64,000 bases of DNA from Asticcacaulis sp. (GTDB lineage Bacteria > Pseudomonadota > Alphaproteobacteria > Caulobacterales > Caulobacteraceae), in contig JASGFL010000003.1 in the NCBI GenBank assembly GCA_047605545.1, forward strand, positions 14,755-78,754. Reading direction: 5' to 3'. Numbering within the stretch: the first letter of the stretch is position 1; every line of letters begins with the position of its first letter. This document shows, one piece after another, positions 17,189 to 41,785 of the stretch. The notes under the pieces were generated by a model. The model ran no database searches. It worked only from the letters and a program-made list of their open reading frames with translations, and was not told the origin of the DNA. The translations under genes were made by a program, and so were the position numbers.

Positions 17189-19861
17189 ATGATGAGCAAA
17201 GGTAAAAGCTATAATCTGAGACTGGCTGTATTGCTGCAAACCACAGCGGTGGCTGCACTTGTACTGGCGGCACCAGCCTATGCCCAGGCCCAGACGGATG
17301 AGACTGAGGCTTCGGATGTGACCGAAGTGGTCGTGACCGGTTCGCGTATTCGCGGCGTGGCAGCGGTTGGCTCCAACCTGGTGTCGCTGGGTGTTGATGA
17401 CATTCAGAAATCCGGTGCCACCTCAACGGCAGACCTTCTGAAAGAAGTGCCGCAAATCACTTCGCTGGGGATCAATGCCGAAGGGTCAATGGGGCCTGCG
17501 GCACCGTCAAACGTGACGCGCGCCACGGCACCGAACCTGCGCGGTATCGGGCCAACCGCGACCCTGACCCTGCTGGATGGTCAGCGCGTATCGAACGCCG
17601 GTACACAGGGTCAATTGGTCGATCCGTCCTTCCTGCCGCCTCTGGCCTTGCAACGCATCGAAGTGATCGCGGACGGCGCTTCGGCCATCTATGGGTCGGA
17701 CGCTGTGGCGGGTGTGGTCAACCTGATCCCGCGCAAGCGTTTTCAGGGACTTGAGGTTTCGGCCCGCGCCGGTTTCGCCGACGGTTATGACGAGCATCAG
17801 TTCGGCGGTATTTTCGGTAAGTCCTGGGAAGGCGGTAATCTGGTTGTTGCCGCTGACTATGTTCACAACAGCTATCTGAGCAATGCGGACCGCGACTTTA
17901 TCTCGTCTGACCGCCGCTGGTTTGGCGGGGCCAATGGCGGGGCGACGACCTGTGCGCCCGGCAATATTCGTCATGGCACGGACACCTATGCCTTGCCGGA
18001 TGGTAATGGTCAGAATGTCCTGATCGGCGGTCTGACGGCCGGTGCGTTCCGTCTGTGTGACCGCGTAGGCTATGACGCCCTGATACCGGAAATGACGCGC
18101 AAAAGCGTCTATGCCTATGTTGAGCAGGAAATTAACGAAGACCTGAAATTCTTCGCGCAGGCCTTCTATTCAGGCCGTGAATCGCAGTCTAGCCGCAGCC
18201 AGTTCAGCGTTTCAAACTACACCCTGCCAACGACCAACGCCTTCTATCCGACCGATGCCACTCAGGCGATCGTCGTCAACTATTCTCTGGCCGAAGAACT
18301 GGGGCCGAACCATGGCACGGGCCTCAGCGATGTCTATCAGGTTCTGATGGGGGTTGAAGGCAATGCCGGTCAGTTCCGGTATAAGCTCAGCGGCTCGGTC
18401 GGTCAGGGCAAGGAACAGGAAATTCAGGACAATCGGATCAATGCCTATGCCCTTGATCAGGCGCTGCGCAGTTCGGATCCGAATACGGCCCTCAATGTGC
18501 TCGGCAGCCCAGGTTCCAACAATCAGTCTGTGCTTGATGCCATCCAGACCGGTTACTGGCGCATTCGCGGCACCAGCGGCCTGCGCACCTTGTCGGCCAG
18601 TTCCGATGGCCCGCTGTTCAGCATTTCCGGCGGTGATGTACGTGTCGCCTTTGGTGCCGAAGTGCGTGAGGAGACCTTTGACTCCTTCCATACCCAGCAT
18701 TCTAACCGCAACTCACCTGAGCCGGTTATTGCGGTCAGCGGCACCCAGCGTCAGGTCAAGGCGGTTTATGGTGAAGTCTTCTTCCCGTTTGTCAGTGCCT
18801 CCAATGCCCTGCCGTTTGTTAAGCGGCTTGATCTGTCGGTCGCCGGTCGCTGGGAAGAATACAGCGACTTTGGTACCACCAGTAATCCGAAGATCGGTGT
18901 GAACTATGCGCCGCTGGATGACCTGACTTTCCGCGCATCCTATGGAACGTCCTTCCGCGCCCCAAGCCTGTCGGAAATCGATCCGAAGGTCAGTGGTTCG
19001 GGTATCTATCAGGGCACCCAGACCATTCCGGGCCGCGGGCTGGTTCAGTATGCGGCGGTCGCCGGTGGTAACCCCGACCTGAAGCCTGAAGAAGCGACGA
19101 CCAAGTCCTTCGGCTTTGACTGGGCACCGAACTATATCAGCGGTCTGAAACTCAGCGTCACCTACTTCGATATCGAGTACAAGGATCAGATCGTTGACGG
19201 CTTTGGTCAGTTGGGTACCTATCTGCGCGAACCGCAGAACTATGTGGGCTTTGTCGCCTATCCCGGTGACAGCGACTACAACCGTATCCGTGACCTGATT
19301 GAAACCTCAGGCTTCATTGAACCGGGCACCATCAACTATACGGGCATTGCGGTTCTTAATGCACGTCGCGCCAATACTGACAGCGTCAAGGTCAATGGTG
19401 TCGATCTTCAGGCCAGCCATGTCTGGTACACCGACACCTATGGTGATTTCACCCTGCGCGGTAACGCCACCAACTATCTGACCTATAAGACCCAGTCGGG
19501 TTCGGGCACCTATGTCAGCCGTCTGAACAATATCGCCTATCCGGCGGAATGGTCAGGCCGCGTTACCGGTGGCTGGGAAAAGGGCGGTCTGAGTGCGCAG
19601 GTGTCGGTTGACTATACCAACAGCTATAACAACACCTTCTCGCTTCTGCTGCCGACGGTGAAATCCTACACCAAGGTGGATGCTGACCTTGCCTATCGCT
19701 TCAATGGTGAAGGCCTGAGAGAAGGTCTGCGGATTGGTCTGAACGTCCGTAACCTGTTCGACAAGAACCCGCCGGTTGTCGATAACGGCAATGGCTATGA
19801 CCCGTCCAAAGCCAGTGCGCTGGGCCGCGTTGTGGCCGTAACCCTCAATAAGAAGTGGTAA
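17189..19861 (+). CDS. TonB-dependent receptor (TBDR-1), 890 aa
   Basis: Signal peptide, TonB box EVVVTGSRI, plug motif ADGASAIYGSDAVAGVVNLI, C-terminal NVRNLFDKNPP...LNKKW. Confidence 0.95.
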   Translation: MMSKGKSYNLRLAVLLQTTAVAALVLAAPAYAQAQTDETEASDVTEVVVTGSRIRGVAAVGSNLVSLGVDDIQKSGATSTADLLKEVPQITSLGINAEGSMGPAAPSNVTRATAPNLRGIGPTATLTLLDGQRVSNAGTQGQLVDPSFLPPLALQRIEVIADGASAIYGSDAVAGVVNLIPRKRFQGLEVSARAGFADGYDEHQFGGIFGKSWEGGNLVVAADYVHNSYLSNADRDFISSDRRWFGGANGGATTCAPGNIRHGTDTYALPDGNGQNVLIGGLTAGAFRLCDRVGYDALIPEMTRKSVYAYVEQEINEDLKFFAQAFYSGRESQSSRSQFSVSNYTLPTTNAFYPTDATQAIVVNYSLAEELGPNHGTGLSDVYQVLMGVEGNAGQFRYKLSGSVGQGKEQEIQDNRINAYALDQALRSSDPNTALNVLGSPGSNNQSVLDAIQTGYWRIRGTSGLRTLSASSDGPLFSISGGDVRVAFGAEVREETFDSFHTQHSNRNSPEPVIAVSGTQRQVKAVYGEVFFPFVSASNALPFVKRLDLSVAGRWEEYSDFGTTSNPKIGVNYAPLDDLTFRASYGTSFRAPSLSEIDPKVSGSGIYQGTQTIPGRGLVQYAAVAGGNPDLKPEEATTKSFGFDWAPNYISGLKLSVTYFDIEYKDQIVDGFGQLGTYLREPQNYVGFVAYPGDSDYNRIRDLIETSGFIEPGTINYTGIAVLNARRANTDSVKVNGVDLQASHVWYTDTYGDFTLRGNATNYLTYKTQSGSGTYVSRLNNIAYPAEWSGRVTGGWEKGGLSAQVSVDYTNSYNNTFSLLLPTVKSYTKVDADLAYRFNGEGLREGLRIGLNVRNLFDKNPPVVDNGNGYDPSKASALGRVVAVTLNKKW

Positions 19862-19866
19862 AACCT

Positions 19867-19899
19867 AAGGCCGCCGTGTTCCGACGCGGCGGCCTTTTT
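19867..19899 (+). terminator. Intrinsic terminator/attenuator after TBDR-1
   Basis: AAGGCCGCCGTG-TTCCGA-CGCGGCGGCCTT followed by T5. Confidence 0.75.
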
Positions 19900-19970
19900 C
19901 AAACCTTTTCAGGATGAATTCAGGGATAGCCGGATCGCGCTCAGACGCGACCGTAAAAAAGGGAAGACAC

Positions 19971-20906
19971 ATGATCCGGACACTTTTAACCGGCGTAATG
20001 GCCGCAGGTTTATTGCTGACGGCACCGGCAATGGCGGAAACCATCTCACCGACCGGCCCGACCAAACGGCTCTATGACGGGCCTGCGCCCGGTTCAGAAA
20101 GCTGGACACGCCCCGAAGTGGCCCAGACTCATGCGCGTGGCGTGGGTCTGTCCTATACCAATGTGCGTGACCCTGAGCTGACCCCTTATCTGCCCGAAGC
20201 CGGTAAGGCCAATGGCGCGGCGGCGATCATCCTGCCGGGCGGGGGGCTAAGGGGCCTGTCGGTTGGGCAGGATACCGAAGACATGATCCGCCTGCTGAAC
20301 GATAAGGGCGTCGCGGTGTTTGTCCTTAAATACCGTACCCTGCAAAGAGAGGTAGAGGCACCGCGTCCACCTGCGCCCGCTGGTGCCGCGCCTGCGCCAT
20401 TCCCCAATATGCCGATTGGCCCGTTGGCGAATGCCAATCCGGCACCGGATGATGCGGGCCTGACCGAGGTGCTGCGACTGGCCGGAGATGATGCGCGGCT
20501 GGCGCTGAAAATGGTGCGGGCGGATGCCAGCGCACTGGGGATTGATCCCAAACGCGTCGGCTTTATCGGTACCTCTGCCGGTGGGGGTGTGGCGATGAAT
20601 GTCATTCTGGATCCGCAAGGCGAAATGCCGGATTTCTTTGTGTCGATCTTTGGCCCGTCGCTTCAGGATGTGGTCGTGCCGGACAATGCTCCGCCTTTGT
20701 TTATCGCGACCGAAACCCCGCACGGACAGGTGACCAACGGCTTGCTGGCGCTTTATCTTCTGTGGAAGAATGCCGGTAAGTCGGCAGAGCTTCATGCCTA
20801 TAATGTGCCGAACTTCACCATGCCGGTATCGCTTTATGGCCCGCGCATGATTGAGTTTCTGGAATCCAGCCATCTGTTCAAACCGGCCACAGCCCCAGCA
20901 CAGTAA
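19971..20906 (+). CDS. Secreted alpha/beta-hydrolase-fold protein (BD-FAE/xylan esterase-like)
   Basis: Signal peptide from MIRTLL (ribosome-binding site GGGAAG), IILPGGG oxyanion loop, VFVLKYR, GFIGTSAGG nucleophile elbow, AGKSAELH. Confidence 0.8.
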   Translation: MIRTLLTGVMAAGLLLTAPAMAETISPTGPTKRLYDGPAPGSESWTRPEVAQTHARGVGLSYTNVRDPELTPYLPEAGKANGAAAIILPGGGLRGLSVGQDTEDMIRLLNDKGVAVFVLKYRTLQREVEAPRPPAPAGAAPAPFPNMPIGPLANANPAPDDAGLTEVLRLAGDDARLALKMVRADASALGIDPKRVGFIGTSAGGGVAMNVILDPQGEMPDFFVSIFGPSLQDVVVPDNAPPLFIATETPHGQVTNGLLALYLLWKNAGKSAELHAYNVPNFTMPVSLYGPRMIEFLESSHLFKPATAPAQ

Positions 20907-20997
20907 TAGCCCGATACCCATAAACAGAACGCCGGAACAGGGGCCGGTAATGGCCCGAAAACGGCGACATAAAAGAAAAAGAATCAGGAGAACAGGG

Positions 20998-22788
20998 ATG
21001 AAAACGAGAACCGCATTACTGACGGCCGTGGCCATGGTCTTTGCCGCACCGGTCTTTGCCCAGACCGCAGCCGTCAGCGCCCCCTATCAGGCGACCGCCA
21101 GCTATAACGGCTATCAGACGGAATCCGTTTATATCGACAGCTATGACGGTACGCGGCTTGCGGTAACGATCCGCAGGCCGTCGCTGAATGGGGTTGTAGC
21201 CACCACGCCCCTGCCGGTTATTGTCACACAGGACCGTACCGGTGAGGCCGAGGAAAGACGCAAACCGGCGATCGATTATTTTACCTCGCACGGCTATGTC
21301 TGGGTGTCGCAGGATCGGCGCGGGACGGGTGCGTCCTTTGGTCTGCAAACCGGCTTTGTTAATCAGGCCGATGCACTGGATGCCAAGGCAGTGATTGAAT
21401 GGGCAGCGGTTCAGGATTTCAGCAACCGCAAGGTTGTGGCCTATGGCTGTTCCAATCAGGCCGCCTGGCAGTATCTGGTGGCGGCACATGACCCTGAGCA
21501 TCTGGTGGCTATGGCGCCGGCCTGCGCTAGCCCGCAGTTCTTTGATCACGGCATGAGCATGAACGGTATTCCGCTCTATCCGGCGTCGGCCACCGGCTAT
21601 ACTGGCGAATGTAAACGTCCGGCAGGTGGTGCGCGTCCGGGCGGTACCGCGCCGCCGCCGGTGCAGCCGGTCGATGCGGATACCGATGGTGCCTTGCTGA
21701 ATATCACCCAGACCAACCAGAGATGTGGTTCCGGCCCGTTTGGTCAGTACTGGCTGAACATGACCCGTGATGCGGTGCATCCCTATCTCAACTATCAGCC
21801 GGCCCTGACGGATACGGTCATTAACCGTCATGAAAAGGTCAAGGCTGCGGGCATTCCTATGTTGCAGATCGGCGGCTGGTTCGATGCTGGTGTCGAAGGT
21901 CAGTTCACCGGTTATCGCCTGTGGGGCGGTCGTATCATTCAGGGGCCGTGGACGCATGGTAATCGTGCCGTTCCTGACACCAATTATCCGGCGGCGACGA
22001 TTGATCTGAATGCGGAAACCCTGCGCTGGTACGACCATTATGCCAAGGGCGTGGACAACGGAGCGGATAAGGCCGGTATTCTCTACTATACCTTCAATGC
22101 CCCTGCCGGAACGGAGTGGCGCGAAACGGCCGTGTGGCCTTTGCCGAATACGCAGGCCACTACCTATTACCTCAATGACAAAGGCCTGAGCGTCAGGGCA
22201 CCGTCAAAATCGGGCAAGCCCGCAACCTATACCCATGACGCTTCGGTCAGTTGGTTCGATGGCAAATATGCCCCGCTGGCGCATGGCTGGGCCGGTGATA
22301 TGCGCGCCAGTGATGCCAAGAGTCTGGTGCACACGCTCAGCCCGCTCGGCAAGGATACCCAGATGACCGGTACGCCGGTGGCCAAGTTGTGGGTCAGTGC
22401 CGATGTCGAGGATATCAACGTCTTTGCCGTCCTTGAGGATGTCGCGCCGGACGGACGTTCAACCTATGTGACGGATGGACGTTTGCGGGCCTCATGGCGT
22501 CAGTTGCACACCCCTGCGTGGGGCGGGCAGGAAAACTGGCACCGCGGCTACAGCGAAGATCTAGTGAAGCTGAAAGCGGGGGAGCCGGTGGAGATGGTGT
22601 TCGACTTTTTCCCCATCTCCTATGTGTTCAAAGCCGGACACAGCCCACGGGTCAGCATCGTTACCCATATCGGACAGGACTATCAGCAACCCGATGCCGT
22701 CAAACAGGCCGCAAAGCCGCCGGTGCTTACGGTCTACCGTGACGCGCAACATCCTTCGGCAGTCATTTTGCCGCTGGTGCAAGAGTAA
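20998..22788 (+). CDS. Secreted CocE/NonD-family serine hydrolase (CocE-1)
   Basis: Signal peptide, DGTRLA, DRRGTGASFG, YGCSNQA, GGWFD, GPWTH, C-terminal jelly-roll (VTDGRLRAS, YVFKAGH). Start follows a CAGGAG ribosome-binding site. Confidence 0.85.
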   Translation: MKTRTALLTAVAMVFAAPVFAQTAAVSAPYQATASYNGYQTESVYIDSYDGTRLAVTIRRPSLNGVVATTPLPVIVTQDRTGEAEERRKPAIDYFTSHGYVWVSQDRRGTGASFGLQTGFVNQADALDAKAVIEWAAVQDFSNRKVVAYGCSNQAAWQYLVAAHDPEHLVAMAPACASPQFFDHGMSMNGIPLYPASATGYTGECKRPAGGARPGGTAPPPVQPVDADTDGALLNITQTNQRCGSGPFGQYWLNMTRDAVHPYLNYQPALTDTVINRHEKVKAAGIPMLQIGGWFDAGVEGQFTGYRLWGGRIIQGPWTHGNRAVPDTNYPAATIDLNAETLRWYDHYAKGVDNGADKAGILYYTFNAPAGTEWRETAVWPLPNTQATTYYLNDKGLSVRAPSKSGKPATYTHDASVSWFDGKYAPLAHGWAGDMRASDAKSLVHTLSPLGKDTQMTGTPVAKLWVSADVEDINVFAVLEDVAPDGRSTYVTDGRLRASWRQLHTPAWGGQENWHRGYSEDLVKLKAGEPVEMVFDFFPISYVFKAGHSPRVSIVTHIGQDYQQPDAVKQAAKPPVLTVYRDAQHPSAVILPLVQE

Positions 22789-22841: not shown

Positions 22842-24332
22842 ATGGCACGTAAAAAATATGTCGTTGCCCTGACGACGGCTCTGGGGTTCCTGACGGCGGG
22901 AGCCTTTGCCGCCGGTGCCCTGTCTGCGCGCCCGTGGTGGGCACCGGGCGACGGGCGACTGTTCAAGGCGCAGGAAGACTATGTCCATGCCGATGGTGTG
23001 CTGCGCACTATACTTGAGGGCGGAGACATTGACACCAAAGGCCATGCCTTCTTTGAGCCGATGGGTAAGGATGGTCGCGCCTGTGTCACCTGTCACCAGC
23101 CTGCCGACGGGATGGGGTTGTCGGTTGAAAGCATCAAGGCCCAGTGGACGGCAACCAAGGGCAAGGATCCGCTGTTTGCGGCCTATGATGGTTCAAACTG
23201 TCTGACCCTGCCTCAGGGCATTGAGGCATCACATTCCCTGCTGCTTGAGCACGGCCTGATCCGTATTCAGCGGCCCTGGCCGCCCAAGGATGTCGCGCCT
23301 GACTTTGACATTGAGGTCGTGCGCGACCCCTATGGCTGTAATACCGGCAAGACCTTTGGCCTGACGGCCAGTACCCCGACCGTGTCGGTTTACCGGCGAC
23401 CGCGTCCGGTGGCCAATATGAAGTTCCTTCTGGCCATGGGCTTTGCCTATGACCCTAAGGACGGCATGCCGTTACGGGTTGATCCGGAAACCGGCAGGCA
23501 GGCGACCGGCAATCTGATGGCGGATGCCCGTCATCCGTCGCTTAAGGCGCAGTTGTTGGATGCCGGTGATACTCACCTTCAGATGTTTGAGGCCTTTACG
23601 CCCGCCCAGCAGGCTCAGATCATCGATTTCGAGAACCGTATCTTTACCGCCCAGATCAAAGGGCCGGGGGGTGTTGATCTTGATCAGGGCGGAGCCATTG
23701 GCGGGCCTAAGGCGCTGATGGAAACGCAGGCCGGACTTCTGGGTGGCTCGACCCGTCCGGTCTGGAGCGAATTTCAGGCATGGGAAAACATGTCGGCCAG
23801 CGAAAAGGCCTCCCTGCCAAAGGATGTGGTTGCCTATCGTGAATCAGTGGCGCGTGGTGCAAGGGTTTTCAGGGAAAAGACCTTCATCATCTATGACAGT
23901 GCCGGTATTAACTCACCCGTAGGCTTCGGCAATCCCGTGCGCAATTCCTGCGTCTTCTGTCACAATATGGCGGGTATGGGCAATGATGTGGCCCCCGGTC
24001 AGGTCGATCTTGGGACCACCACCCAGCCCTTCAGTGATCCGGCACCGCATCTGCCCCTGTTCCGTATTACCTGTAAGGGGCCGCCGCATCCGCACTATGG
24101 CCGCGTTATTCTTACCAGTGACCCCGGCTATGGTCTGACCTCCGGCAAATGCGCCGATGTAGGCAAGATCACCCTGCAATCCCTGCGTGGCCTATCGACG
24201 CGCGCACCCTATTTCGTCAATGGCACCGCCAAGGACCTCAGGGGCGTGATCGATTACTACGAACGCCGGTACAATATCGGCTACACCGAACAGGAAAAGG
24301 TCGATCTGATTAATCTCATGAAGGCATTGTGA
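22842..24332 (+). CDS. Secreted di-haem c-type cytochrome of the bCCP/MauG superfamily
   Basis: Signal peptide; CxxCH at 23082-23096 (CVTCH) and 23949-23963 (CVFCH); C-terminal SDPG...GK...LRGL..RAPYF.NG...L..VIDYY...EK.DLI pattern. Confidence 0.75.
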   Translation: MARKKYVVALTTALGFLTAGAFAAGALSARPWWAPGDGRLFKAQEDYVHADGVLRTILEGGDIDTKGHAFFEPMGKDGRACVTCHQPADGMGLSVESIKAQWTATKGKDPLFAAYDGSNCLTLPQGIEASHSLLLEHGLIRIQRPWPPKDVAPDFDIEVVRDPYGCNTGKTFGLTASTPTVSVYRRPRPVANMKFLLAMGFAYDPKDGMPLRVDPETGRQATGNLMADARHPSLKAQLLDAGDTHLQMFEAFTPAQQAQIIDFENRIFTAQIKGPGGVDLDQGGAIGGPKALMETQAGLLGGSTRPVWSEFQAWENMSASEKASLPKDVVAYRESVARGARVFREKTFIIYDSAGINSPVGFGNPVRNSCVFCHNMAGMGNDVAPGQVDLGTTTQPFSDPAPHLPLFRITCKGPPHPHYGRVILTSDPGYGLTSGKCADVGKITLQSLRGLSTRAPYFVNGTAKDLRGVIDYYERRYNIGYTEQEKVDLINLMKAL

Positions 24333-25150
24333 TGCAGGCTCCGTCTTTTTTCAAAATGAACCTGCCTTCGGGCAAAAGCCTTGCGGCTACGGGTCTTCTG
24401 ATGGCCATGATCCTGTCGGCCACTCAGGCGGCGGCTACGGACATCAAGGTTCTGGCCTGCCCCATATATCGCGACGCCAATCTGATGCGGGTGGCGGGGT
24501 GCTGGCTGGTGGATGATCCGCTGACGGGCATACGTTATGATGTGTCCGACACGGTTTCACGTCCCGACTGGAACTATGCGGTTCTGGTTGAGGGGCGTCT
24601 GGCGAAGGATACCAACGGGGGCTGCGGCGGGCTGAGGCTTGAGTCCCTAAGAACCTCGGTCATGTATGACATGCCCTGTACCCGACATATGCTGCCGGCG
24701 GATGGCTATTCCGGACGTGACCGCTATCGGGCGGCGCGCAATGTTCAGCCGACCCATGCCTTAAGGCCTGAGATCGCCAAACCCCATACCGACAAGAGCT
24801 TTTATCTTTACTACGATTTCAACAAGAGCTTCGGCATCTATCAGTATGATGACTATCTTCTGGACGTGGCGATCCACCATATCCGTTCGGTGAAACCGGC
24901 GCGGATTATCGTTACGGGCTATGCCGATACGCGAAAGCAGATCGTCTCAGGCACCGAGATTTCAGAGACGGAGCAAATCGCCAGAGATCGTGCGGAAATG
25001 ACCGTCGAATCCCTGATAAGGCTTGGGGTCAAACCTGAGATGATCGAGATGCGTATTGCCGTCGATTCTCAGCCCATTGATGACGAAGGCGCGGACGGAC
25101 TGCCGGATCAGTCACGTCGGCGTTCCGAAATCCGCGTCCTGATGAATTAA
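24332..25150 (+). CDS. Secreted protein: N-terminal four-Cys domain of unknown function plus C-terminal OmpA-like domain
   Basis: YYDFNKS...IIVTGYAD...ARDRAEMTVESLIRLGV...RRRSEI resembles OmpA_C. Translationally coupled to the cytochrome (TGATG). Confidence 0.65.
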   Translation: MQAPSFFKMNLPSGKSLAATGLLMAMILSATQAAATDIKVLACPIYRDANLMRVAGCWLVDDPLTGIRYDVSDTVSRPDWNYAVLVEGRLAKDTNGGCGGLRLESLRTSVMYDMPCTRHMLPADGYSGRDRYRAARNVQPTHALRPEIAKPHTDKSFYLYYDFNKSFGIYQYDDYLLDVAIHHIRSVKPARIIVTGYADTRKQIVSGTEISETEQIARDRAEMTVESLIRLGVKPEMIEMRIAVDSQPIDDEGADGLPDQSRRRSEIRVLMN

Positions 25151-25284
25151 ACAGTTTGTGATGTCAGGAGGTGGTAATTCTGTTTCCTGATGGGGATGAG
25201 CGGACTAAAATCCTGAGATGAACAATCCCGCCGTCCTCAGTGATGTGCGGGATTTTACACGTCATATTTTTCAAGGACAGACCT

Positions 25285-26265: not shown

Positions 26266-26291
26266 GGACGGTCTGTGCCGTCCGAAACGTC

Positions 26292-26325
26292 AAAAAAAAG
26301 GGGGCGAACATGAAAATTCGCCCCC
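26292..26325 (-). terminator. Intrinsic terminator of the CoA-transferase / dehydratase-like / CocE-2 operon
   Basis: Stem GGGGGCGAA / TTCGCCCCC with T8 on the minus strand. Confidence 0.8.
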
Positions 26326-31927: not shown

Positions 31928-31959
31928 ATTGTGTCGTCCCTGAGGTAAGTGTGTTGTGT

Positions 31960-32144: not shown

Positions 32145-32231
32145 TATTATACCCAAGAACAGGGTGTCGGTCGTGATCGTGAACCCTGCGATAAGGTCAA
32201 GAGATGAGAAACGTTCCTGGAGGTATATTCT

Positions 32232-34910: not shown

Positions 34911-34917
34911 TAGAGTA

Positions 34918-34956
34918 AAAAACCTCTCGTACCTTAACCGGCCGCGAGAGGTTTTT
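34918..34956 (+). terminator. Stem-loop terminator/attenuator after TBDR-2
   Basis: AAAAACCTCTCG / CGAGAGGTTTTT. Confidence 0.7.
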
Positions 34957-35032
34957 ATCTTCGGCCGGAAAACCGGTCACACGGTTCTTGAATAAATATA
35001 ACGCATCGTAAGCGTACTCAGGGAAAACGACA

Positions 35033-36874
35033 ATGAAGTCTGCCGGTATGGGTCTGTTCATGGGGGTGGCTGTTGCGACCCTGACTTTGCCTTTCGCCGC
35101 TGTGGCCAAGCCCGGCGAATATGCGGCAACGCCACAATATAACAGTTTCGTTCGCACCACTGAACTGGTGGAGGTGCGCGACGGGGTGCGTCTGGCGGCA
35201 ACGGTTTATCGGCCGGCAATCAATGGCGTGGCGGTCGATAAGCCCCTGCCGGTGCTTTTCAACCTCACCCCCTATCTGTCACGGCGCATTGATGCGGACG
35301 GCAAGATCACAGGCTCGATCGAGGTCGAGAACCGCCGTAACCGTCCGTTCGCGCAACTTACCTATTATGGCTATGTGGTGGTGGTTGCCGATGTACGCGG
35401 CAAGGGCTCATCGTTTGGCACGCGCTGGGCCTATGCCGATCAGCACGAAGGCGAAGACGGCCACGATCTGGTACAGTGGATGGGCAAGCAGGGCTGGTCC
35501 GACGGTAAGGTCGGCATGTTCGGTTGTTCCTATGTCGGTGGAACCCAGTGGGCCACGGCGCGTAACACGCCTTCGCACCTAAAAGCGATTTTCCCGCAGG
35601 CAGCGCAATTCGACAGCTATCGCAATGTGCGGCGCGGCGGCATTTCCGGTCAGTACAATACCCGTCCGCAGAAGATCGACGAAGACTTCCCTACGGCTCC
35701 GGTCGATATTGATAAGGACGGCAGCCTGAAGGCGGCGGCGCTGAAACAACATGAGGCCAATGGCCAGATGATGGATCTGGTGTCGTCTCTGGTCAATCGT
35801 GACGACCGGACGGACAAGGATATATTGTACTGGGCCTTGTCATCGCCCTATCCGAAGATCGAAGACATGCGCAAGGCGGGCATTTCGGTCTATCTGTGGG
35901 GTAACTGGCGCGATGAGCCGGTCGATCAGGCCTATATTGCCTATGAGAATATGAAGGATGGCACGGGTCTGACCAAGATGATTGTCGGGCCGGGCGACCA
36001 CTGCGATACGGACACCATCGACTCGTTCAATGAGCATCTGCGTTACTTTGATTACACCCTTAAGGGCATTGAAAACGGCATCGCCAGCGAACCGCCGATC
36101 TATTACAAGACCATAGGTCTGCCCGAAGATCAGGCGTGGCGTTTTGCCGATGATCTGCCGCTGAATGACGCTCCGGCAACGCGGTTCTATCTGGGGCCAA
36201 AGGCAAGCCTCAGCCAGACAATCGCCTCAAAGCCTGCCTTTGATCGCTATAATGTGACCTATCGCGTCGGCTGTCAGCCACCGGCCTTTGCGCGTGGGAC
36301 ATCGATGATGACCTTCACGCCGTCAGACAGTGACGAACTGCCCGAACCGGGCATGTGGCCATGCGTCAATTCGCAGGCCGCGAAGCTTTATGAAACCAAG
36401 GCCATGCCCGAAGATATGTGGCTGTCCGGTTTTTCGATTGTCAGCCTGACGCTGAAAAGCTCGGCCCCTGAAGCCTATGTTTTTGCCTATCTGGAAAAGG
36501 TTGCGCCTGACGGTAAGGCTGAGATTATCGGCCACGGACGTTTGCTGGGGTCGCAACGCGCTCTTGGTGAAGCGCCCTATAAAAATCTTGGGCTGCCCTG
36601 GCATCCGTTCAGCCGCGACACCCATGAAGCTGTGCCGGTCAATGAGCCGGTCAACCTGACCTTTGAGCTTAATCCGACTTCGGAAGTCATCCCCAAAGGC
36701 CACAAATTGCGCCTGTCGTTCACCGGCGTCGATCAGCGTCAGCGCAACTGGAAGGCGCTGCGGATCGATCCGGCACCGGTCTGGGATATTGCCGTTGGCG
36801 GTAAGGACGGCTCCTATATTGATATGAAACTGGTCTCGGCCAAACAACTGACGAAGGGAACGGCCAATGACTAA
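35033..36874 (+). CDS. Secreted CocE/NonD-family serine hydrolase (CocE-3)
   Basis: Signal peptide, RDGVRLAATVYRP, LTPY, DVRGKGSSFG, WSDGKVGMFGCSYVG, GNWRD, GPGDHC. Confidence 0.88.
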   Translation: MKSAGMGLFMGVAVATLTLPFAAVAKPGEYAATPQYNSFVRTTELVEVRDGVRLAATVYRPAINGVAVDKPLPVLFNLTPYLSRRIDADGKITGSIEVENRRNRPFAQLTYYGYVVVVADVRGKGSSFGTRWAYADQHEGEDGHDLVQWMGKQGWSDGKVGMFGCSYVGGTQWATARNTPSHLKAIFPQAAQFDSYRNVRRGGISGQYNTRPQKIDEDFPTAPVDIDKDGSLKAAALKQHEANGQMMDLVSSLVNRDDRTDKDILYWALSSPYPKIEDMRKAGISVYLWGNWRDEPVDQAYIAYENMKDGTGLTKMIVGPGDHCDTDTIDSFNEHLRYFDYTLKGIENGIASEPPIYYKTIGLPEDQAWRFADDLPLNDAPATRFYLGPKASLSQTIASKPAFDRYNVTYRVGCQPPAFARGTSMMTFTPSDSDELPEPGMWPCVNSQAAKLYETKAMPEDMWLSGFSIVSLTLKSSAPEAYVFAYLEKVAPDGKAEIIGHGRLLGSQRALGEAPYKNLGLPWHPFSRDTHEAVPVNEPVNLTFELNPTSEVIPKGHKLRLSFTGVDQRQRNWKALRIDPAPVWDIAVGGKDGSYIDMKLVSAKQLTKGTAND

Positions 36875-38300
36875 CCGGCATATGTCACGACGTACATTAT
36901 TTGGCAGTGTGGCAGCGCTGGCGGCCCTGACGGCGATGCCGGTGACGGCAAGTGCACGCCCCCTGCCGCGCGTAACCCAACTCCCTGATGCAGGTGCAAA
37001 AGGTCTGCTGATCTGGGACGTGACGGGTCTGGGCTATATCGCCGAAGAATTCATGATTGAAGGCAAGGCCGATGTGCTTGAGTCCGTATCGATGGCCGAT
37101 GCCGTGGATATGTCCAAGCGTAATGGTCTTGAGGATTTTCTGCGCCGCGATTTCAACCGTACGGTTGTTGCCGAAGCCCGCCCCTATGCGACACGCGTGG
37201 TCGTCTATCGCCCGATAGACATGAGCCGATTCAGCGGCCGGATTTTGCTTGAGGTGCTGCACCCAAGCGGCGGCGGTCGGGCCAATGTCTGGCAACGTAC
37301 CTATGACCTGCTGGCGGATCGCGGCGACATCACCATCGGTATTCAGCCGCCATTCAACGTCAAGGAACTGCGCGAAGGCGATCCGGTACGTTATGGAAAG
37401 CTGCATGCCGAACACCCGACCCAGCTTTGGGATGTGGTGACGGATGTCGCACGTCTGACCAAGACCGTAGGTGAGGGCGGATTGCTGGGCGGGGCCGTGG
37501 CGCGGCATCAGGTGCTGGCCGGTTTCTCCTATACCGGTGTGGCCACGGCAAACTATGCCAATTTCCAGCATGACCGTGCCCGTCTGGCGGATGGCCGGCC
37601 ACTGATTGACGGCTATATGCCTATGGGTTCGGCGACCTTTGTGCGTCCATTGGATGTGCCGGTGATACGCATGACAACCCAGAGCGAATTTGACGGTATT
37701 CAGGGCATCCGCGCCCGTGTACCTGACAGCGATGACCCCAAGGGTCGGTGCCGTCTGTACGAAGTCGCCGGTGCGCCGCACTCGACCGTACCTTTGCCGG
37801 TCGGGGCCGCGCTTGCGCCCACCAAGACGGTGCCTGAGCCTGCCGGCCTGCCGCGTTTCTCGCCTGAAACCTGTCAGCAGGGATTTCCGGAAACATCCTA
37901 CCGCAATGACTTTCCGCTGCATCTGGTGATCGAAGGTATCTATGTGAATATCTTTGAGTGGATCGAAAACGGCGTCGTGCCGCCTCATGCGCCCCTCATT
38001 GAGGTGGACGCCGAGGGACGGACACTGGTGGACGAATTTGGCAATGCCAGGGGCGGTCTGAGGCTTCCGGAAGTGACCGTGCCGATTGCCACCTATGGCG
38101 TAGGCGCAAAGGGCCCCTGCGGTAATTTTGGTTACACCAAGCCCTTCACGATTGAGGAAAAGCGCCGCCTGTACGGCAACAAGGCGGCCTATGTCTCACG
38201 CGTGCGTCAGGCCTCCGAAACCTTGTTTACAGAACGTTTTGTGACGGCCAAAGGCAAGAACAGACTGATTGGTTTAGCGGCAGCGACTGAGGCATTTTAA
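36867..38300 (+). CDS. Tat-exported alpha/beta-hydrolase-domain protein
   Basis: Tat signal SRRTLF; TRVVVYRP...FSGRILLE, LAGFSYTG elbow, YEVAGAPH, DEFGNARGGLRLP, LYGNKAAY. Confidence 0.75.
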   Translation: MTNRHMSRRTLFGSVAALAALTAMPVTASARPLPRVTQLPDAGAKGLLIWDVTGLGYIAEEFMIEGKADVLESVSMADAVDMSKRNGLEDFLRRDFNRTVVAEARPYATRVVVYRPIDMSRFSGRILLEVLHPSGGGRANVWQRTYDLLADRGDITIGIQPPFNVKELREGDPVRYGKLHAEHPTQLWDVVTDVARLTKTVGEGGLLGGAVARHQVLAGFSYTGVATANYANFQHDRARLADGRPLIDGYMPMGSATFVRPLDVPVIRMTTQSEFDGIQGIRARVPDSDDPKGRCRLYEVAGAPHSTVPLPVGAALAPTKTVPEPAGLPRFSPETCQQGFPETSYRNDFPLHLVIEGIYVNIFEWIENGVVPPHAPLIEVDAEGRTLVDEFGNARGGLRLPEVTVPIATYGVGAKGPCGNFGYTKPFTIEEKRRLYGNKAAYVSRVRQASETLFTERFVTAKGKNRLIGLAAATEAF

Positions 38301-38800
38301 TGGGCGGATCAATAAAATCATCTGATGAGCCGGAACGCCCGCTGCACTGGGCGGCGAAGATTCCGCTGTTTCTGGGATCCGTGGCCATACTGGTGGCCAT
38401 GACGGCGGATTCGCTGGCGGTTGTGGGGCGTCATGCCAACATCCCTCTGCTTGGCACGGTTGAGATTGTGCAGCTTGCGGCCAGTATTGCCGGTGGTGCC
38501 ACTATTATCTGTGCCACGATTGCCGGTGCTCATGCCTCGATCCACGTGTTGACCGATCGGGTATCACCTGAGGTGCGGCACAGGTTGTTGACCTTTGCCC
38601 GCCTGATGACGGCCATCTTCTTCGTCGCCCTGACGATAGGTTGCGGCTGGTTGATGGTGGACATGCTGGGGCAGGGCGAGCGTACCGAACTGACGGGTAT
38701 GCCACTTATGCCGTTCCGTCTTTTGGCGACATTGGCGTTCGGGGCTACGGCCCTGTTGTATGTGATCGCGTTATTCAAACCTGAAAAGAGTAAGCAATGA
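38300..38800 (+). CDS. dctQ: TRAP transporter small permease
   Basis: Four transmembrane segments, DSLAVVGR...P..GTVEIVQ, AHASIHVL. Upstream of dctM. Confidence 0.85.
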   Translation: MGGSIKSSDEPERPLHWAAKIPLFLGSVAILVAMTADSLAVVGRHANIPLLGTVEIVQLAASIAGGATIICATIAGAHASIHVLTDRVSPEVRHRLLTFARLMTAIFFVALTIGCGWLMVDMLGQGERTELTGMPLMPFRLLATLAFGATALLYVIALFKPEKSKQ

Positions 38801-40098
38801 CCCCCGAAGTCGTTGGTATATTAGGCGTTATTGTCCTTCTGGCGTTGCTGACGACGGGTATTCCCATTGCTGCGGCGCTGGGGCTTGTTGGCTGTGTTGG
38901 TCTGGCCATTCTGATTTCACCCGAAGCCGCCCTCATCAAGTCGGGCGTGGTCGCGTGGGAAACCATTTCAAAATACGAACTGGCGGTGTTGCCGCTGTTC
39001 CTGTTGATGGCGCATCTGTGTTTTGCGGCGGGGGCCAGTAGGGACTTCTTTGATGCAGCCGCCAAGATGCTGGGGCATCGAAAAGGCGGTCTGGCTACGG
39101 CGTCGATTGCCGGTTGCGCCGGTTTTGGTACCATCAGTGGCTCCAGTCTGGCGACAGCGGCGACCATCGGGCTTGTGGCCCTGCCGGAGATGCGCAAGCG
39201 TAACTATTCGCCGGGTCTGGCGACCGGTGCGATTGCAGCGGGCGGTACGCTGGGGGCGCTTATCCCCCCAAGCGGTATGCTGATTGTCTATGGCATTATT
39301 GCCGAACAACCGATCAGCAAGCTGTTTGCGGCGGCGATTATTCCCGCAGCTACACAAGCACTCTTTTACATCATTACCGTGATGATCATGTGCCGTATCA
39401 AGCCGGAACTGGGGCCGGTGACGGAACGGTTCAGCTGGCGTGAACGCGGTCAGGCCCTGTGGCGGATCGTCGATCTGGTGGTGCTGATTGCTGTGGTTAT
39501 CGGTGGTCTGGCTATTGGCTGGTTTACACCGACCGAAGCGGCTTCAGTAGGGTGTGTGCTGGCGATGATCCTGTGTATCAAGCGCCGCGCCCTTAGCCTT
39601 AAGGTGCTTGGGGACTCACTGCGTGAGACCATGCGCACCTCCGGTCTGATCTATGCCATTATTGTGGGCGCGGTGATTTTCAGTAAGTTTCTGGGCACCA
39701 CAGGCGTAGCCGAGCAACTGACCAATGTGGTGCTGGATGCGCAGTTCGGGCCGATTGCGGCGGCGATATTTGTGGTGATCATTCTGCTGCTGCTGGGGTC
39801 TGTGCTGGATGGTATGGCGCTGATGCTGCTGACCGTGCCGATCTTCCTGCCGATGATGGAAGAACTGGGTATGAGCGCGATCTGGTTCGGGATTTTCGTC
39901 ATCCGCACGATTGAGGTCGGGCTGGTGCATCCGCCACTGGGGATGAACGTCTATGTCATCCAGAGTATCGCCAAGGATATCCCGCTTGGGACTATCTTTA
40001 AGGGTGTGTTGCCGTTCATCGCGGCGGACTTTGTTCACATTGCCCTCATCATTGCTGTACCGGCGATTGTGATGTGGCTGCCCGGTATTCTGTCATGA
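38797..40098 (+). CDS. dctM: TRAP transporter large permease
   Basis: LAVLPLFLLM, FGTISGSS, AAGGTLGALIPPS, GWFTPTEAAS, HPPLGMNVYV. Confidence 0.93.
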   Translation: MTPEVVGILGVIVLLALLTTGIPIAAALGLVGCVGLAILISPEAALIKSGVVAWETISKYELAVLPLFLLMAHLCFAAGASRDFFDAAAKMLGHRKGGLATASIAGCAGFGTISGSSLATAATIGLVALPEMRKRNYSPGLATGAIAAGGTLGALIPPSGMLIVYGIIAEQPISKLFAAAIIPAATQALFYIITVMIMCRIKPELGPVTERFSWRERGQALWRIVDLVVLIAVVIGGLAIGWFTPTEAASVGCVLAMILCIKRRALSLKVLGDSLRETMRTSGLIYAIIVGAVIFSKFLGTTGVAEQLTNVVLDAQFGPIAAAIFVVIILLLLGSVLDGMALMLLTVPIFLPMMEELGMSAIWFGIFVIRTIEVGLVHPPLGMNVYVIQSIAKDIPLGTIFKGVLPFIAADFVHIALIIAVPAIVMWLPGILS

Positions 40099-41246
40099 GC
40101 CTGAAACCTGACCTGAGATTTGTACAGAGACGTAACATGCGTAAACCTATGTGTCTGAACGCTGCCGTTTTGGCCGGTGCGGTATTGGCTTTGGTGATGT
40201 CCGTCAGTGCCTGTGCGCCAACGGCTCCGAAAACCGAAGCGGGCGAAGTGGTGCATGTTCTGCGCTATGCTTCGCCCTATACGCCGGGCCATCCTTTAAG
40301 TCAGGCGGACATGGCATGGATCGATTACATCCACACCGCCAGTAAAGGCCGTTTGAAGGTGGAGCCGTTGTGGGCGGGGGGGCTTATTTCTTCTGAGCAC
40401 AATATGATCGAGCTGCGTCATGGCGTGGCCGATATTGCCACCATTACGCCGATCTATGCCAAGGGCGGCACACATGCCATTCGGGTGCAGTCGGGCTTCT
40501 ATGGTGGTGAGCGGTCAATCGATCAGCAGGTTGCCGTCTATAAATGCCTGTCGACGCACTACCCGGAACTGAACCGTGAGATTGAAGGTCTGGAGCTTCT
40601 GGCGGTGCAGGGCGGGAACGTTCTGGGTCTGATTACGCGCGACCGCAAGGTGACGAAACTGTCTGACCTCAGGGGCCTGAGAATCCGCGTGCCGGCGGAA
40701 CTGGTGCCAACCATGCGCAAGCTGGGGGCCGATCCGCTGGATATGCCCATGTCGGATGTCTATTCGTCACTGGCCAAGGGCGTGATTGACGGTGTGGTGG
40801 CTCCGGCAGACACATTGCGCAGCCTGCACTTCGGTGAGGTCGCCCGCTATTTCAACGAACTGCACATCAGCCGCGGGGCCTATCCGGCCCGTGCCATGTC
40901 GCAAAAGAAATTCAACACCCTGCCCAAGGACCTTCAGGACTTGCTGCGCAACAGCCAGTCCGTCTGGGAAGAGGCGATCAAGGACAAGATGACCGCCGCC
41001 CAGACAAGCGGCGCAGACTATGCCCGTGAACAGGGCATGGAGTTCTTACCCTTTGATGCAGCAGAACAAATCCGCTTTGATGGCCTGTATAACGAGCAGG
41101 CGGCAGAGACGGCGCGTCTGGCGCAGAGTGATCATCTGAATGCGGAAGGAATGTTTACCCTTGCGCAGCGCGTGGTTAAACTGTTGAACTCTGAGCAGGG
41201 CCAAAACATCGGATATGACACCGCAAGCGTCTGTCCGAAAGCCTGA
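40095..41246 (+). CDS. dctP: TRAP substrate-binding protein (DctP family), probable lipoprotein
   Basis: Lipobox VSAC, SKGRLKVE, DLRGLRIRVP (carboxylate-binding Arg), DVYSSLAKGVIDG. An alternative start lies at 40137. Confidence 0.88.
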   Translation: MSLKPDLRFVQRRNMRKPMCLNAAVLAGAVLALVMSVSACAPTAPKTEAGEVVHVLRYASPYTPGHPLSQADMAWIDYIHTASKGRLKVEPLWAGGLISSEHNMIELRHGVADIATITPIYAKGGTHAIRVQSGFYGGERSIDQQVAVYKCLSTHYPELNREIEGLELLAVQGGNVLGLITRDRKVTKLSDLRGLRIRVPAELVPTMRKLGADPLDMPMSDVYSSLAKGVIDGVVAPADTLRSLHFGEVARYFNELHISRGAYPARAMSQKKFNTLPKDLQDLLRNSQSVWEEAIKDKMTAAQTSGADYAREQGMEFLPFDAAEQIRFDGLYNEQAAETARLAQSDHLNAEGMFTLAQRVVKLLNSEQGQNIGYDTASVCPKA

Positions 41247-41248
41247 AT

Positions 41249-41785
41249 ATGTCAACCAGCACACGGTCAATCATGAGTGTACGCCAAACGCCGCCCGAGC
41301 CTGAACTATTGTCGGAAAATCTGAATGACTCAGATATCGGGCTGGGGCGCCTCAGTGGCTTTATCGGTTTCCGCTTTCGCCGGATTCAGAACTATCTGTC
41401 GCGGCAGTTTGCGGGGCTTACGCAGGAATATGGCCTGCGCTCAGGTGCCCTAAGCTCGCTGGCGATCATTGAGGAAAATCCGGGTATTTCTCAGGCGGTG
41501 CTGGCCAAGGCCATCGGCATGGATGCCACGGCTGCGGTGGCTCTTCTGGAGGAACTGGGGCGCAAGGGCTGGATCGAACGTCGCCGTACCGAACAGGATC
41601 GTCGCCGCTATGCCATTTTCCTTAGCGACAAGGGGCAGGCGGTGCTGAACCACCTGCTTGAGGTGCTGAGCGGGACAGAGGATGAGGCCCTCAGGGTGCT
41701 GAGTGTGCATGAACTTCTGGTGCTTAATCGGGCGCTGGAAAAAATCTATGACCATTGCTTTCACGGCGACAGCGCCGACGGCTAG
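41249..41785 (+). CDS. MarR-family regulator (last gene of the island)
   Basis: IGFRFRRIQ, IEENPGISQAVLA, GWIERRRTEQDRRRYAIFLSDKG. Confidence 0.88.
   Translation: MSTSTRSIMSVRQTPPEPELLSENLNDSDIGLGRLSGFIGFRFRRIQNYLSRQFAGLTQEYGLRSGALSSLAIIEENPGISQAVLAKAIGMDATAAVALLEELGRKGWIERRRTEQDRRRYAIFLSDKGQAVLNHLLEVLSGTEDEALRVLSVHELLVLNRALEKIYDHCFHGDSADG

Follow-up and report, generated by a model that had tools for sequence, protein, structure and literature searches.

A mosaic gene island beside the lignin-monomer funnel of an Asticcacaulis species, probably an uncharacterised route for plant phenolic esters

What might a 24.6-kb stretch of outer-membrane transporters, exported hydrolases and coenzyme A (CoA) chemistry be doing beside the lignin-monomer genes of an Asticcacaulis species? 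The question is raised by positions 17189-41785 of a 64,000-nucleotide (nt) window of contig JASGFL010000003.1, the window being the whole stretch of DNA analysed, and the original prediction had regarded these positions as a single uncharacterised system. Our comparison with other genomes indicates that the stretch is most likely a locally assembled version of a modular hydroxycinnamate super-island that is horizontally mobile, and that it probably represents an uncharacterised route for plant phenolic esters. At its centre a family III CoA-transferase (CoAT) is encoded next to a relative of the 2-hydroxyglutaryl-CoA dehydratases (HGD), together with a TonB-dependent outer-membrane transporter (TBDR), a CocE/NonD-family serine hydrolase and a tripartite ATP-independent periplasmic (TRAP) importer. 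The reading is carried by the recurrent linkage of this core to the hydroxycinnamate side-chain cleavage genes ech and vdh.

Gene calls were made from a listing of open reading frames (ORFs) together with Pfam and NCBIfam scans of the proteins of the window, and export signals were read by eye from the N-termini. The scans confirmed the predicted gene content for all 16 of the 16 genes. The features of the stretch are as follows.

17189-19861, + strand: TBDR1, a TonB-dependent outer-membrane transporter with plug and beta-barrel domains and a signal peptide
19914-20906, + strand: Est, an exported Abhydrolase_3/BD-FAE-like alpha/beta esterase (Pfam BD-FAE 28.1 bits, cut-off 26.8)
20851-22788, + strand: S15a, an exported CocE/NonD-family serine hydrolase (Peptidase_S15, PepX_C, TIGR00976 at 249 bits)
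22842-24332, + strand: an exported dihaem protein of 496 amino acids (aa) with two CxxCH motifs and no Pfam family
24329-25150, + strand: its exported OmpA-like partner, with a degenerate OmpA-like C-terminal domain (OmpA 22.7 bits, below the cut-off)
25240-26265, + strand: a cytoplasmic aldo/keto reductase (AKR; Aldo_ket_red 231 bits)
26300-26325, - strand: a strong intrinsic terminator closing the CoAT-HGD-S15b operon (10-bp GC-rich stem followed by a T8 run)
26336-28201, - strand: S15b, an exported CocE/NonD hydrolase (Peptidase_S15, PepX_C, TIGR00976)
28218-30656, - strand: the HGD-like protein of 812 aa, a fused HadC-like (beta) and HadB-like (alpha) protein (PF06050 in two stretches)
30656-31927, - strand: CoAT, a family III CoA-transferase (CoA_transf_3 354 bits, full length)
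31928-32231, no strand: the divergent AT-rich control region between CoAT and TBDR2, with a predicted promoter within it
32232-34910, + strand: TBDR2, a TonB-dependent transporter and member of the conserved core, with plug and barrel domains and a signal peptide
34918-34956, + strand: a perfect 12-bp hairpin between TBDR2 and S15c, an inverted repeat (AAAAACCTCTCG/CGAGAGGTTTTT) with a 15-nt loop
35033-36874, + strand: S15c, an exported CocE/NonD hydrolase and core member (Peptidase_S15, PepX_C, TIGR00976 at 254 bits)
36867-38300, + strand: Abh10, a hydrolase of the Abhydrolase_10 family exported by twin-arginine translocation (Tat; PF20091 302 bits)
38300-38800, + strand: DctQ, a TRAP membrane subunit with a DctQ domain
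38797-40098, + strand: DctM, a TRAP membrane subunit with a DctM domain
40074-41246, + strand: DctP, the TRAP binding protein, with a lipobox and a DctP domain
41249-41785, + strand: MarR2, a CouR-like MarR regulator with MarR domains, the last gene of the TBDR2 operon

Signal-like N-termini were seen in all five hydrolases, as had been predicted, and also in the dihaem protein, the OmpA-like protein and DctP. The true starts of Est and S15a are likely to be internal, at about 19971 and 20998. The earlier description of a CoA-transferase with a dehydratase-like fusion needs redrawing: a fusion does exist, but it joins beta-like and alpha-like HGD-D halves within the 812-aa protein, and CoAT is an ORF of its own.

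Upstream of the island we found the genes for 4,5-cleavage of protocatechuate, pobA, MarR1, vdh-ech-fcs, vanAB, a GntR regulator and a major facilitator superfamily (MFS) transporter, and the lignin-monomer funnel that had been described there is therefore present as stated. The genes that matter most for the comparison are these.

8092-8532, - strand: MarR1, 146 aa, divergent from vdh in a hydroxycinnamate operon context
8704-10170, divergent from MarR1: vdh, side-chain cleavage operon
10188-11024, divergent from MarR1: ech, side-chain cleavage operon
11145-12644, divergent from MarR1: fcs, side-chain cleavage operon

MarR1 is easily overlooked because it is shorter than the 150-aa threshold of the ORF listing.

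In order to follow the system through other genomes we scanned one genome per prokaryotic species with the HGD-like protein, which gave 197 relatives, and 80 loci were kept. Orthologues of Ech, counted at a threshold of at least 67% identity to the Ech of the window (p-hydroxycinnamoyl-CoA hydratase-lyase type), were present in 47 of 50 HGD-positive genomes, the three exceptions being Steroidobacter/Povalibacter. The background was an even sample of 251 genomes of Sphingomonadaceae, the family of one carrier, in which Ech occurred in 55 (22%) and HGD in six, all of them Ech-positive; the association gives a Fisher p = 7e-24, uncorrected for phylogeny. Ech lay on the contig of HGD and within 40 kb of it in at least 20 of the 50 genomes, against a chance expectation of about one; in 13 the two were no more than 25 kb apart, and in the window the distance is 17 kb. 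These distance counts are lower bounds, and the matching of contigs to accessions was checked in nine genomes.

The same association is seen in the gene neighbourhoods. We mapped six super-islands, covering 45-60 kb around HGD, in two Sphingomonas, Novosphingobium sp. MW5, Niveispirillum irakense, a Hydrogenophaga metagenome-assembled genome (MAG) and Alteromonas confluentis, that is, in Alpha-, Beta- and Gammaproteobacteria. Their shared set comprises vdh-ech with fcs or a ferA-type ADP-forming synthetase and DUF3237, the dihaem/OmpA-like pair, MarR2-DctQMP-CoATs-HGD, and TBDR2 with S15c, Abh10 or a tannase/feruloyl-esterase. The ferA-type synthetase adjoins ech in the sphingomonad super-islands, and several super-islands have ech-vdh with no Fcs homologue nearby. 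A cytochrome P450 with generic relatives only in a Protein Data Bank (PDB) sequence search and a PGA_cap protein are often present, and vanAB, GntR and pobA accompany the set in Niveispirillum. Tannase/feruloyl-esterase genes adjoin a TBDR in at least seven loci, and genes of the GDSL family and of glycoside hydrolase families 43 and 115 (GH43, GH115) lie in the flanks; GH43 and GH115 flank the module in Hydrogenophaga, and vanA-GntR are its neighbours in Novosphingobium. The link to the hydroxycinnamate funnel, given the frequency of Ech among carriers against 22% in the background, its proximity and these six islands, is conserved and not accidental, and as far as gene neighbourhoods can tell a link to plant phenolic esters is well supported. 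As a separate observation, three protein families with no Pfam or NCBIfam match (about 320, 450-540 and 340 aa; for example locus L104, 13157-14128, 15079-16698 and 8691-9719) occur in three or four super-islands, accompanied by an MmgE/PrpD-family protein and one or two P450s.

A paralogous cluster is found on sphingomonad megaplasmids, namely pCME4A9I of Croceicoccus marinus (locus L088, 4315-16473) and a plasmid of Novosphingobium sp. EMRT-2 (locus L089). Its order is GntR, then CocE/NonD, (TBDR), CapA, DctQ, DctM, a hypothetical gene, a CoAT of ~700 aa, an alpha-only HGD of ~430 aa, DctP, a further hypothetical gene and a second CoAT. In Croceicoccus marinus it stands directly beside a ferA-type synthetase, a hydroxycinnamoyl-CoA hydratase-lyase, DUF3237, an aldehyde dehydrogenase, an MFS transporter and a MarR regulator. 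The alpha-only paralogue, 41% identical to the C-terminal half of the HGD-like protein of the window, is the sole HGD match in three congeners. Among 36 other genomes of the window's genus, a full-length HGD was found in none and Ech in three, two of which carry the paralogous HGD.

How much of the 24.6 kb belongs together is shown by the 80 loci. The carriers are mostly Sphingomonas and Novosphingobium, joined by Steroidobacter/Povalibacter, Steroidobacterales-like MAGs, Niveispirillum, Alteromonas confluentis, Rubrivivax and Hydrogenophaga, one actinobacterium and two Clostridiales MAGs. The conserved block consists of MarR, DctQMP, CoAT (64-74% identical), HGD (45-66%), TBDR2 (40-46%) and an S15c-type hydrolase. 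The CoAT of the window is 64-74% identical to the HGD-adjoining copy of about 75 loci; DctM (60-66%) and DctP (41-55%) were found in 66-67, MarR2 adjoining the module in 57, TBDR2 orthologues (40-46% identity) adjoining it in 53, and an S15c-type gene next to TBDR2 in 35. The genes thus do co-occur elsewhere, with the order of the core kept in four places and larger versions of it in about 75 of the 80 loci, many of which add two or three CoA_transf_3 paralogues and a cytoplasmic PGA_cap protein. The exact order of the window, [CoAT-HGD] divergent from [TBDR-S15-Abh10-DctQMP] and with no extra paralogues, is found again in Sphingomonas sp. Leaf357 and on three metagenome contigs, and Abh10 holds the same position in Leaf357, L086, L087 and Novosphingobium TCA1. 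The flanks of these Leaf357-type minimal cores are unrelated (bc1 complex genes, phage genes), and since the same arrangement recurs with unrelated flanks, 28218-41785 can be regarded as a self-contained 13.6-kb module. The idea of a 24.6-kb unit was not borne out: judged by gene conservation, the stretch is a mosaic of separately conserved modules, the core being one of them, and no single unit. The source genome itself contains no PGA_cap and no tannase, one further family III transferase, and no second TRAP system was found in it. The island genes do not differ from the flanks or the genome in GC content or third-position GC content (GC3), with no compositional trace of recent transfer.

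The left-hand part of the stretch is made of such sub-modules. TBDR1 and TBDR2 are paralogues (39%), as are S15a and S15b of S15c (26-32%), and the six super-islands contain no counterparts of TBDR1, Est, S15a or S15b. Est has a GTSAG motif, weak NCBIfam matches to AxeA1 and PaeX, and weak PDB sequence matches. Orthologues of S15a at 50-61% identity are common in sphingomonads; in Pelagerythrobacter marensis P0201 one is fused to an Abhydrolase_3/BD-FAE esterase in an 830-aa Rosetta-stone protein. Sphingopyxis indica (locus L113, 8970-19876) has an Est-S15a-TBDR-tannase-PGA_cap-MmgE/PrpD array, in which Est and S15a overlap and one gene of no assigned family separates PGA_cap from MmgE/PrpD; the array adjoins an integrase fragment, and its tannase, PGA_cap and MmgE/PrpD belong to families met again in the super-islands. 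Related loci have no counterpart of S15b in this place, and it is the third gene of the CoAT-HGD operon in the source genome only. Orthologues of the AKR (about 61% identity) directly follow HGD in 11 Sphingomonas-type loci.

The dihaem protein has its haem motifs at residues 81 (CVTCH) and 370 (CVFCH), a faint match to the MbnH family only, and no match in a PDB sequence search. Orthologues of the dihaem/OmpA-like pair (56-67% identity) were found in 35 of the 50 HGD-positive genomes, in at least 23 of them at 8.5-39 kb from HGD, and the pair is kept in all six mapped super-islands. In the even sample of 251 Sphingomonadaceae the dihaem protein occurred in seven genomes at 60% identity or more and in 14 at any level (3-6%), and all 14 were Ech-positive. 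The pair also lies 5-20 kb from ech in genomes lacking HGD, and in three super-islands it is preceded by a TBDR of its own (707-760 aa), a pattern that suggests a separate periplasmic redox function tied to hydroxycinnamate use.

The genes form three transcription units, a left one on the + strand from TBDR1 to AKR, a middle one on the - strand (CoAT-HGD-S15b) and a right one on the + strand from TBDR2 to MarR2, and the description of three tightly coupled operons holds, with short or overlapping junctions. On the right the junctions of the two operons measure -1, -4, -8, -25, +2 and +16 nt, with overlaps of -1 to -25 nt running through S15c-Abh10-DctQMP, and in the left operon they measure 52-91 nt. 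CoAT and the HGD-like ORF overlap in TAATG, the dihaem and OmpA-like genes overlap by 4 nt (GTGATG) and are translationally coupled, and S15b, 16 nt past the HGD stop, is preceded by a GGAGG ribosome-binding site. The best sigma-70-like match, predicted upstream of CoAT, is TTGACG-18-AATAAT at 31972-32001 on the - strand, and the TTGACG box and the AGxTGAAxAxT..CAAxTAxT block after it are kept in Leaf357-type loci (L084-L087). No operator common to the left and core promoters was found: 18-mer matches of the regions upstream of TBDR1, AKR, S15c, fcs, vdh, vanA and MFS to the CoAT/TBDR2 region were no better than those of shuffles. The hairpin at 34918-34956 may be an attenuator or partial terminator, perhaps setting the ratio of the transporter to the downstream enzymes.

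The TRAP system is complete, with PF03480, PF04290 and PF06808 in consecutive overlapping genes, and is the sole one found in the source genome; the nearest structures to DctP bear generic titles only. No substrate-specific NCBIfam model reaches its cut-off for either TBDR, the weak matches being to FepA/CirA/BtuB models far below their cut-offs; there is no SusD-like gene, and for the SusC signature TIGR04057 the score of 16 bits falls short of the cut-off of 46. S15a, S15b and S15c match TIGR00976 at 247-255 bits (cut-off 66), and cocaine esterase is the nearest structure to S15c (E = 3e-25). The tannase-like Cys-Ser motif noted earlier was recovered in S15b and S15c, where a Cys directly precedes the nucleophile Ser (GCSYYG and GCSYVG), and S15a has GMSMNG. 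Abh10 carries an SRRTLF twin-arginine signal and a GFSYTG motif; it has no match in a PDB sequence search, and its structural model is weak (predicted local distance difference test, pLDDT, 61; shallow alignment), giving generic cutinase, PETase and dienelactone-hydrolase matches at template modelling (TM) scores of 0.2-0.4.

CouR of Rhodopseudomonas palustris is a MarR protein that responds to p-coumaroyl-CoA, and it is the best PDB match of MarR2 (6C28, E = 1e-11, the next being 1e-8) and likewise of MarR1. The two window regulators are 29% identical, and MarR2 scores 69 bits against a cut-off of 200 with the Saro_0803 family model.

What reaction stands at the centre of the core? The AlphaFold model of the HGD-like protein (pLDDT 89, predicted TM score, pTM, 0.89) consists of two domains with a disordered linker (368-398) between them. 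Its sole significant PDB fold matches are HadB and HadC (TM 0.80-0.81), followed by BzdNO, MbdON and double-cubane proteins (DCCP), all Fe-S enzymes of the radical dehydratase/reductase superfamily. The HGD-D fold is present in both the alpha and beta halves, and the adjoining family III CoA-transferase in about 75 loci. Among 48 aerobic homologues no Cys column is conserved; in their alpha-like half about 100 positions are invariant and often charged, E438, S483, D492, E605, H694 and D734/E735 being among the invariant residues. A Clostridiales alpha subunit that is 48% identical to the C-terminal half keeps its cysteines, and these align to V456, E480, S483, S515/A517 and a gap in the window protein, two of the positions coinciding with Cys-rich motifs of HadB; cysteines of HadB and of the clostridial subunit stand opposite E480, S483 and an ESDA stretch. 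The Clostridiales locus in question (L079, 9800-20537; L077 has the same layout) encodes PucR, then separate HGD-beta, HGD-alpha and CoAT, then an Opp-type ABC importer (SBP_bac_5), then PGA_cap, with no activator gene within 22 kb. Nor was an activator found in the related loci examined, Leaf357-type and Clostridiales loci included, or a BcrAD_BadFG activator near HGD in the source genome, whose three matches look like sugar kinases.

The best of these matches is a NagK-like kinase next to AgaS, beyond the end of the window. An AgaR repressor, an AgaS-family isomerase, a NagK-like kinase and another TBDR make up an amino-sugar utilisation cluster (56009-56812, and contig 79.5-82.5 kb), and it is the NagK-like kinase of that cluster that accounts for a BcrAD_BadFG match on the same contig.

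We rejected the assignment of the HGD-like protein as a 2-hydroxyacyl-CoA dehydratase because the [4Fe-4S] Cys ligands of that family are absent and no activator is encoded nearby. We regard it instead as a relative with presumably non-radical chemistry. The nearest solved structures to CoAT are 4ed9, a formyl-CoA transferase, SUGCT and YfdE, with mesaconate- and glutarate-CoA transferases also near, and its likeness to SUGCT/YfdE-type enzymes suggests succinyl- or acetyl-CoA as the CoA donor. The PGA_cap (CapA-family) protein of the larger clusters (locus L011, 14690-15808, and 41 other loci) has no signal peptide, and its best NCBIfam match is MslH, a lasso-peptide C-terminal Trp epimerase, at 97 bits and below the cut-off. 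This resemblance suggests a C-alpha epimerase rather than capsule synthesis, which would fit an alpha-chiral acid and is a hint only.

A search of a full-text library gave no description of such a system, no NCBIfam equivalog model reaches its cut-off and the product names of the source are generic, in agreement with the earlier view of the system as uncharacterised. The cluster is of a familiar general kind, in that a TBDR, periplasmic hydrolases, an importer and CoA chemistry are combined, but the set of genes is new, and the central enzyme cannot function in the manner of its relatives. The clostridial Fld and Had systems (FldA/FldBC/FldI of Clostridium sporogenes; HadA/HadBC/HadI of Clostridioides difficile) likewise place a family III CoA-transferase directly beside HGD-D alpha and beta subunits, and the window fold superposes on HadB/HadC; in the window, however, the subunits are fused in the order beta-alpha, with no conserved Cys and no nearby activator ATPase, the hosts are aerobes, the partners are TBDR, periplasmic hydrolases, TRAP and MarR, and CoAT is nearer to SUGCT/YfdE. 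The cou cluster of R. palustris combines the CouR repressor with the TarPQM TRAP importer, and the window shares with it a CouR-related MarR, a DctP-type TRAP and the genomic association with hydroxycinnamoyl-CoA hydratase-lyase; it differs in having a CoA-transferase and HGD-like protein instead of or besides a ligase, and in the added TBDRs and five exported hydrolases. In Sphingobium sp. SYK-6 the TBDR DdvT serves the uptake of 5,5'-dehydrodivanillate. The gene context is alike, a sphingomonad-type TBDR in an aromatic catabolic cluster that presumably imports an aromatic too large for porins, whereas the window TBDRs are coupled to periplasmic hydrolases and TRAP, a coupling which suggests that the imported species is probably an ester, cleaved before the inner membrane. 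Polysaccharide utilisation loci of Bacteroidota share TBDR uptake, periplasmic esterases and an inner-membrane importer, and Est just reaches the BD-FAE cut-off, but the window has no SusD partner, TBDRs below the SusC signature, no glycoside hydrolases and a CoA-dependent cytoplasmic part. S15a, S15b and S15c resemble CocE of Rhodococcus sp. MB1 in having Peptidase_S15, PepX_C and GxSxxG, and CocE is the nearest structure to S15c, although the identity is low (the match covers part of the sequence), the window enzymes are exported and S15b and S15c have the Cys before the nucleophile.

Taken together, we regard it as moderately probable that the stretch serves the uptake and breakdown of esterified plant phenylpropanoid acids. 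TBDR1 and TBDR2 would pass conjugates too large for porins into the periplasm, where the five exported serine hydrolases (the BD-FAE-like enzyme, three CocE/NonD enzymes and the Tat-exported Abhydrolase_10) would free the acid moiety. DctPQM would import the carboxylate and CoAT would form its CoA thioester from succinyl- or acetyl-CoA with no use of ATP. The HadCB-like protein, which appears to have lost the Fe-S ligands of its anaerobic ancestors, would then convert the thioester by non-radical chemistry for the Ech/Vdh/Van/protocatechuate funnel. The CouR-like MarR2 would probably sense the CoA thioester and de-repress the divergent promoters, and the AKR and the dihaem/OmpA-like pair would be conserved accessory parts of the super-island. 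The gene content, the export signals, the operon structure, the cysteine-free HadBC fold and the synteny, co-occurrence and physical linkage with ech are observed; in this scheme we infer the substrate class, including the rosmarinate, chlorogenate or lignin dimer proposed earlier, the CoA donor, the HGD-like reaction, the effector of MarR2 and any flux into Ech. Our most specific guess at the substrate, though an unlikely one taken by itself, is an alpha-chiral or alpha-oxygenated arylpropanoic acid, for example (hydroxy)phenyllactate from rosmarinate-type depsides.

A number of observations weigh against this scheme. Canonical 2-hydroxyacyl-CoA dehydration is chemically implausible in the absence of an Fe-S cluster and an activator, which leaves the key step with no known precedent. 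CoAT is closer in sequence to small-dicarboxylate enzymes than to benzylsuccinate CoA-transferase, the sole aryl-acid member among its PDB matches. No operator shared by the left operon (TBDR1 promoter) and the core promoter was found, composition offers no independent sign of an island, and the co-occurrence statistics are uncorrected for genome size and habitat as well as phylogeny. Steroidobacter and Povalibacter carry the module and lack Ech, and in Leaf357 Ech is 157 kb from HGD and not adjoining. Finally, the Gram-positive relatives pair HGD/CoAT with Opp-type (SBP_bac_5) ABC importers and the S15 family also includes peptidases, which makes an amide or peptide-like substrate possible.

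That last point leads to an alternative that we think improbable, namely an amide or peptide-like conjugate, or a non-aromatic alpha-chiral 2-hydroxy or dicarboxylic acid (N-acyl amino acid, gamma-glutamyl-type, malate-, tartrate- or glutarate-type), with the aromatic link reflecting a shared plant-litter habitat. The Xaa-Pro dipeptidyl peptidases and amino-acid ester hydrolases of the S15 family, the combination of Opp-type ABC importers, HGD/CoAT and PGA_cap or Abh10 in Clostridiales and Pseudolysinimonas relatives, the small-dicarboxylate transferases nearest to CoAT, the kinship of PGA_cap with a peptide C-terminal epimerase and the Steroidobacter and Povalibacter carriers lacking Ech all speak for it. 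Against it, a shared habitat alone would not lead one to expect ech within 10-40 kb of the module in at least 20 of 50 genomes of three classes, the recurring neighbours are tannase/feruloyl-esterase, BD-FAE and GDSL esterases, and the regulators are CouR-like. Those same regulators, and the strong co-occurrence and linkage of the module with ech-vdh, would also suit a simpler scheme in which TRAP-CoAT-HGD imports free hydroxycinnamates (ferulate, p-coumarate, caffeate). Acetyl-CoA from the Ech reaction would be recycled by CoAT in an ATP-saving CoA loop, and HGD would be only a structural or regulatory partner with no new chemistry. FldA forms such a complex with FldBC, the overlap of the CoAT and HGD genes in TAATG suggests that their products associate stoichiometrically, and several super-islands with ech-vdh have no nearby Fcs homologue. 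We nevertheless consider this unlikely, as the ferA-type synthetase beside ech in sphingomonad super-islands and fcs in the window make a second activation route unneeded, a scaffold would not require as many invariant residues as the alpha-like half has, and the two or three extra CoA-transferase paralogues and the epimerase-like PGA_cap of larger clusters point to a more complex acid.

It might also be asked whether there is a 24.6-kb system at all, or whether three independent accessory operons lie side by side in a catabolic region with only the 13.6-kb core as a functional unit. The minimal core does occur alone with unrelated flanks, the left and right promoters have no common operator, and four left-hand or middle genes (TBDR1, Est, S15a, S15b) lack counterparts in the six super-islands. 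We judge this quite unlikely, given that the dihaem/OmpA-like pair accompanies HGD in 35 of 50 genomes against a 3-6% background, usually within 40 kb, that AKR directly follows HGD in 11 loci, that the Est-S15a-TBDR trio sits with tannase, PGA_cap and MmgE/PrpD, and that TBDR1, S15a and S15b are paralogues of core TBDR2 and S15c. Very improbable, in our estimation, is metal or siderophore acquisition or the degradation of aliphatic or aromatic polyesters (cutin, suberin, synthetic). The tannase family contains MHETase, cutinases and PETases are the nearest folds to the Abh10 model, and the TBDRs and the dihaem protein have their weak FepA/CirA/BtuB and faint MbnH matches; but none of the TBDR matches comes near its cut-off, the model of Abh10 is of low quality, and TRAP, CoAT, HGD, the CouR-like regulator and the ech linkage would be left unexplained. 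A steroid or bile-acid substrate, raised by the Steroidobacter matches, was rejected for want of supporting neighbours, and a bile-salt study in Sphingomonadaceae proved unrelated to the system. Novosphingobium TCA1 is known as a calcium-dependent isolate, a trait that says nothing about the function of the cluster.

The funnelling of lignin- and plant-derived aromatics is a target of biomass valorisation, and little is known of the steps by which esterified and dimeric phenolics enter it. A modular system tied to ech/vdh in three proteobacterial classes bears on these steps, and since its carriers include culturable strains, among them Arabidopsis-leaf isolates and rice-rhizosphere bacteria, it is directly testable. 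Beside the HGD-like protein, the linkage of the dihaem/OmpA-like pair to ech is a second lead. The question for enzymology is what the HGD fold does once cofactor, cluster ligands and activator are lost in a protein still 48% identical to a Cys-bearing clostridial subunit. One answer, which we put forward tentatively and hold to be rather unlikely, is that the cysteine-free HadC-HadB-like protein and CoAT descend from the clostridial aryl-lactate/2-hydroxyacyl-CoA dehydratases and form an oxygen-tolerant, non-radical version that turns an alpha-oxygenated or alpha-substituted phenylpropanoid acid into hydroxycinnamoyl-CoA for Ech, candidates being (hydroxy)phenyllactate from rosmarinate-type depsides or an 8-O-4/alpha-aryloxy cinnamate from diferulates or lignin fragments. 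If true, this would mean new enzyme chemistry and would give the bacterial lignin/phenylpropanoid funnel a new and widespread entry branch, supplied by TBDR-esterase-TRAP uptake.

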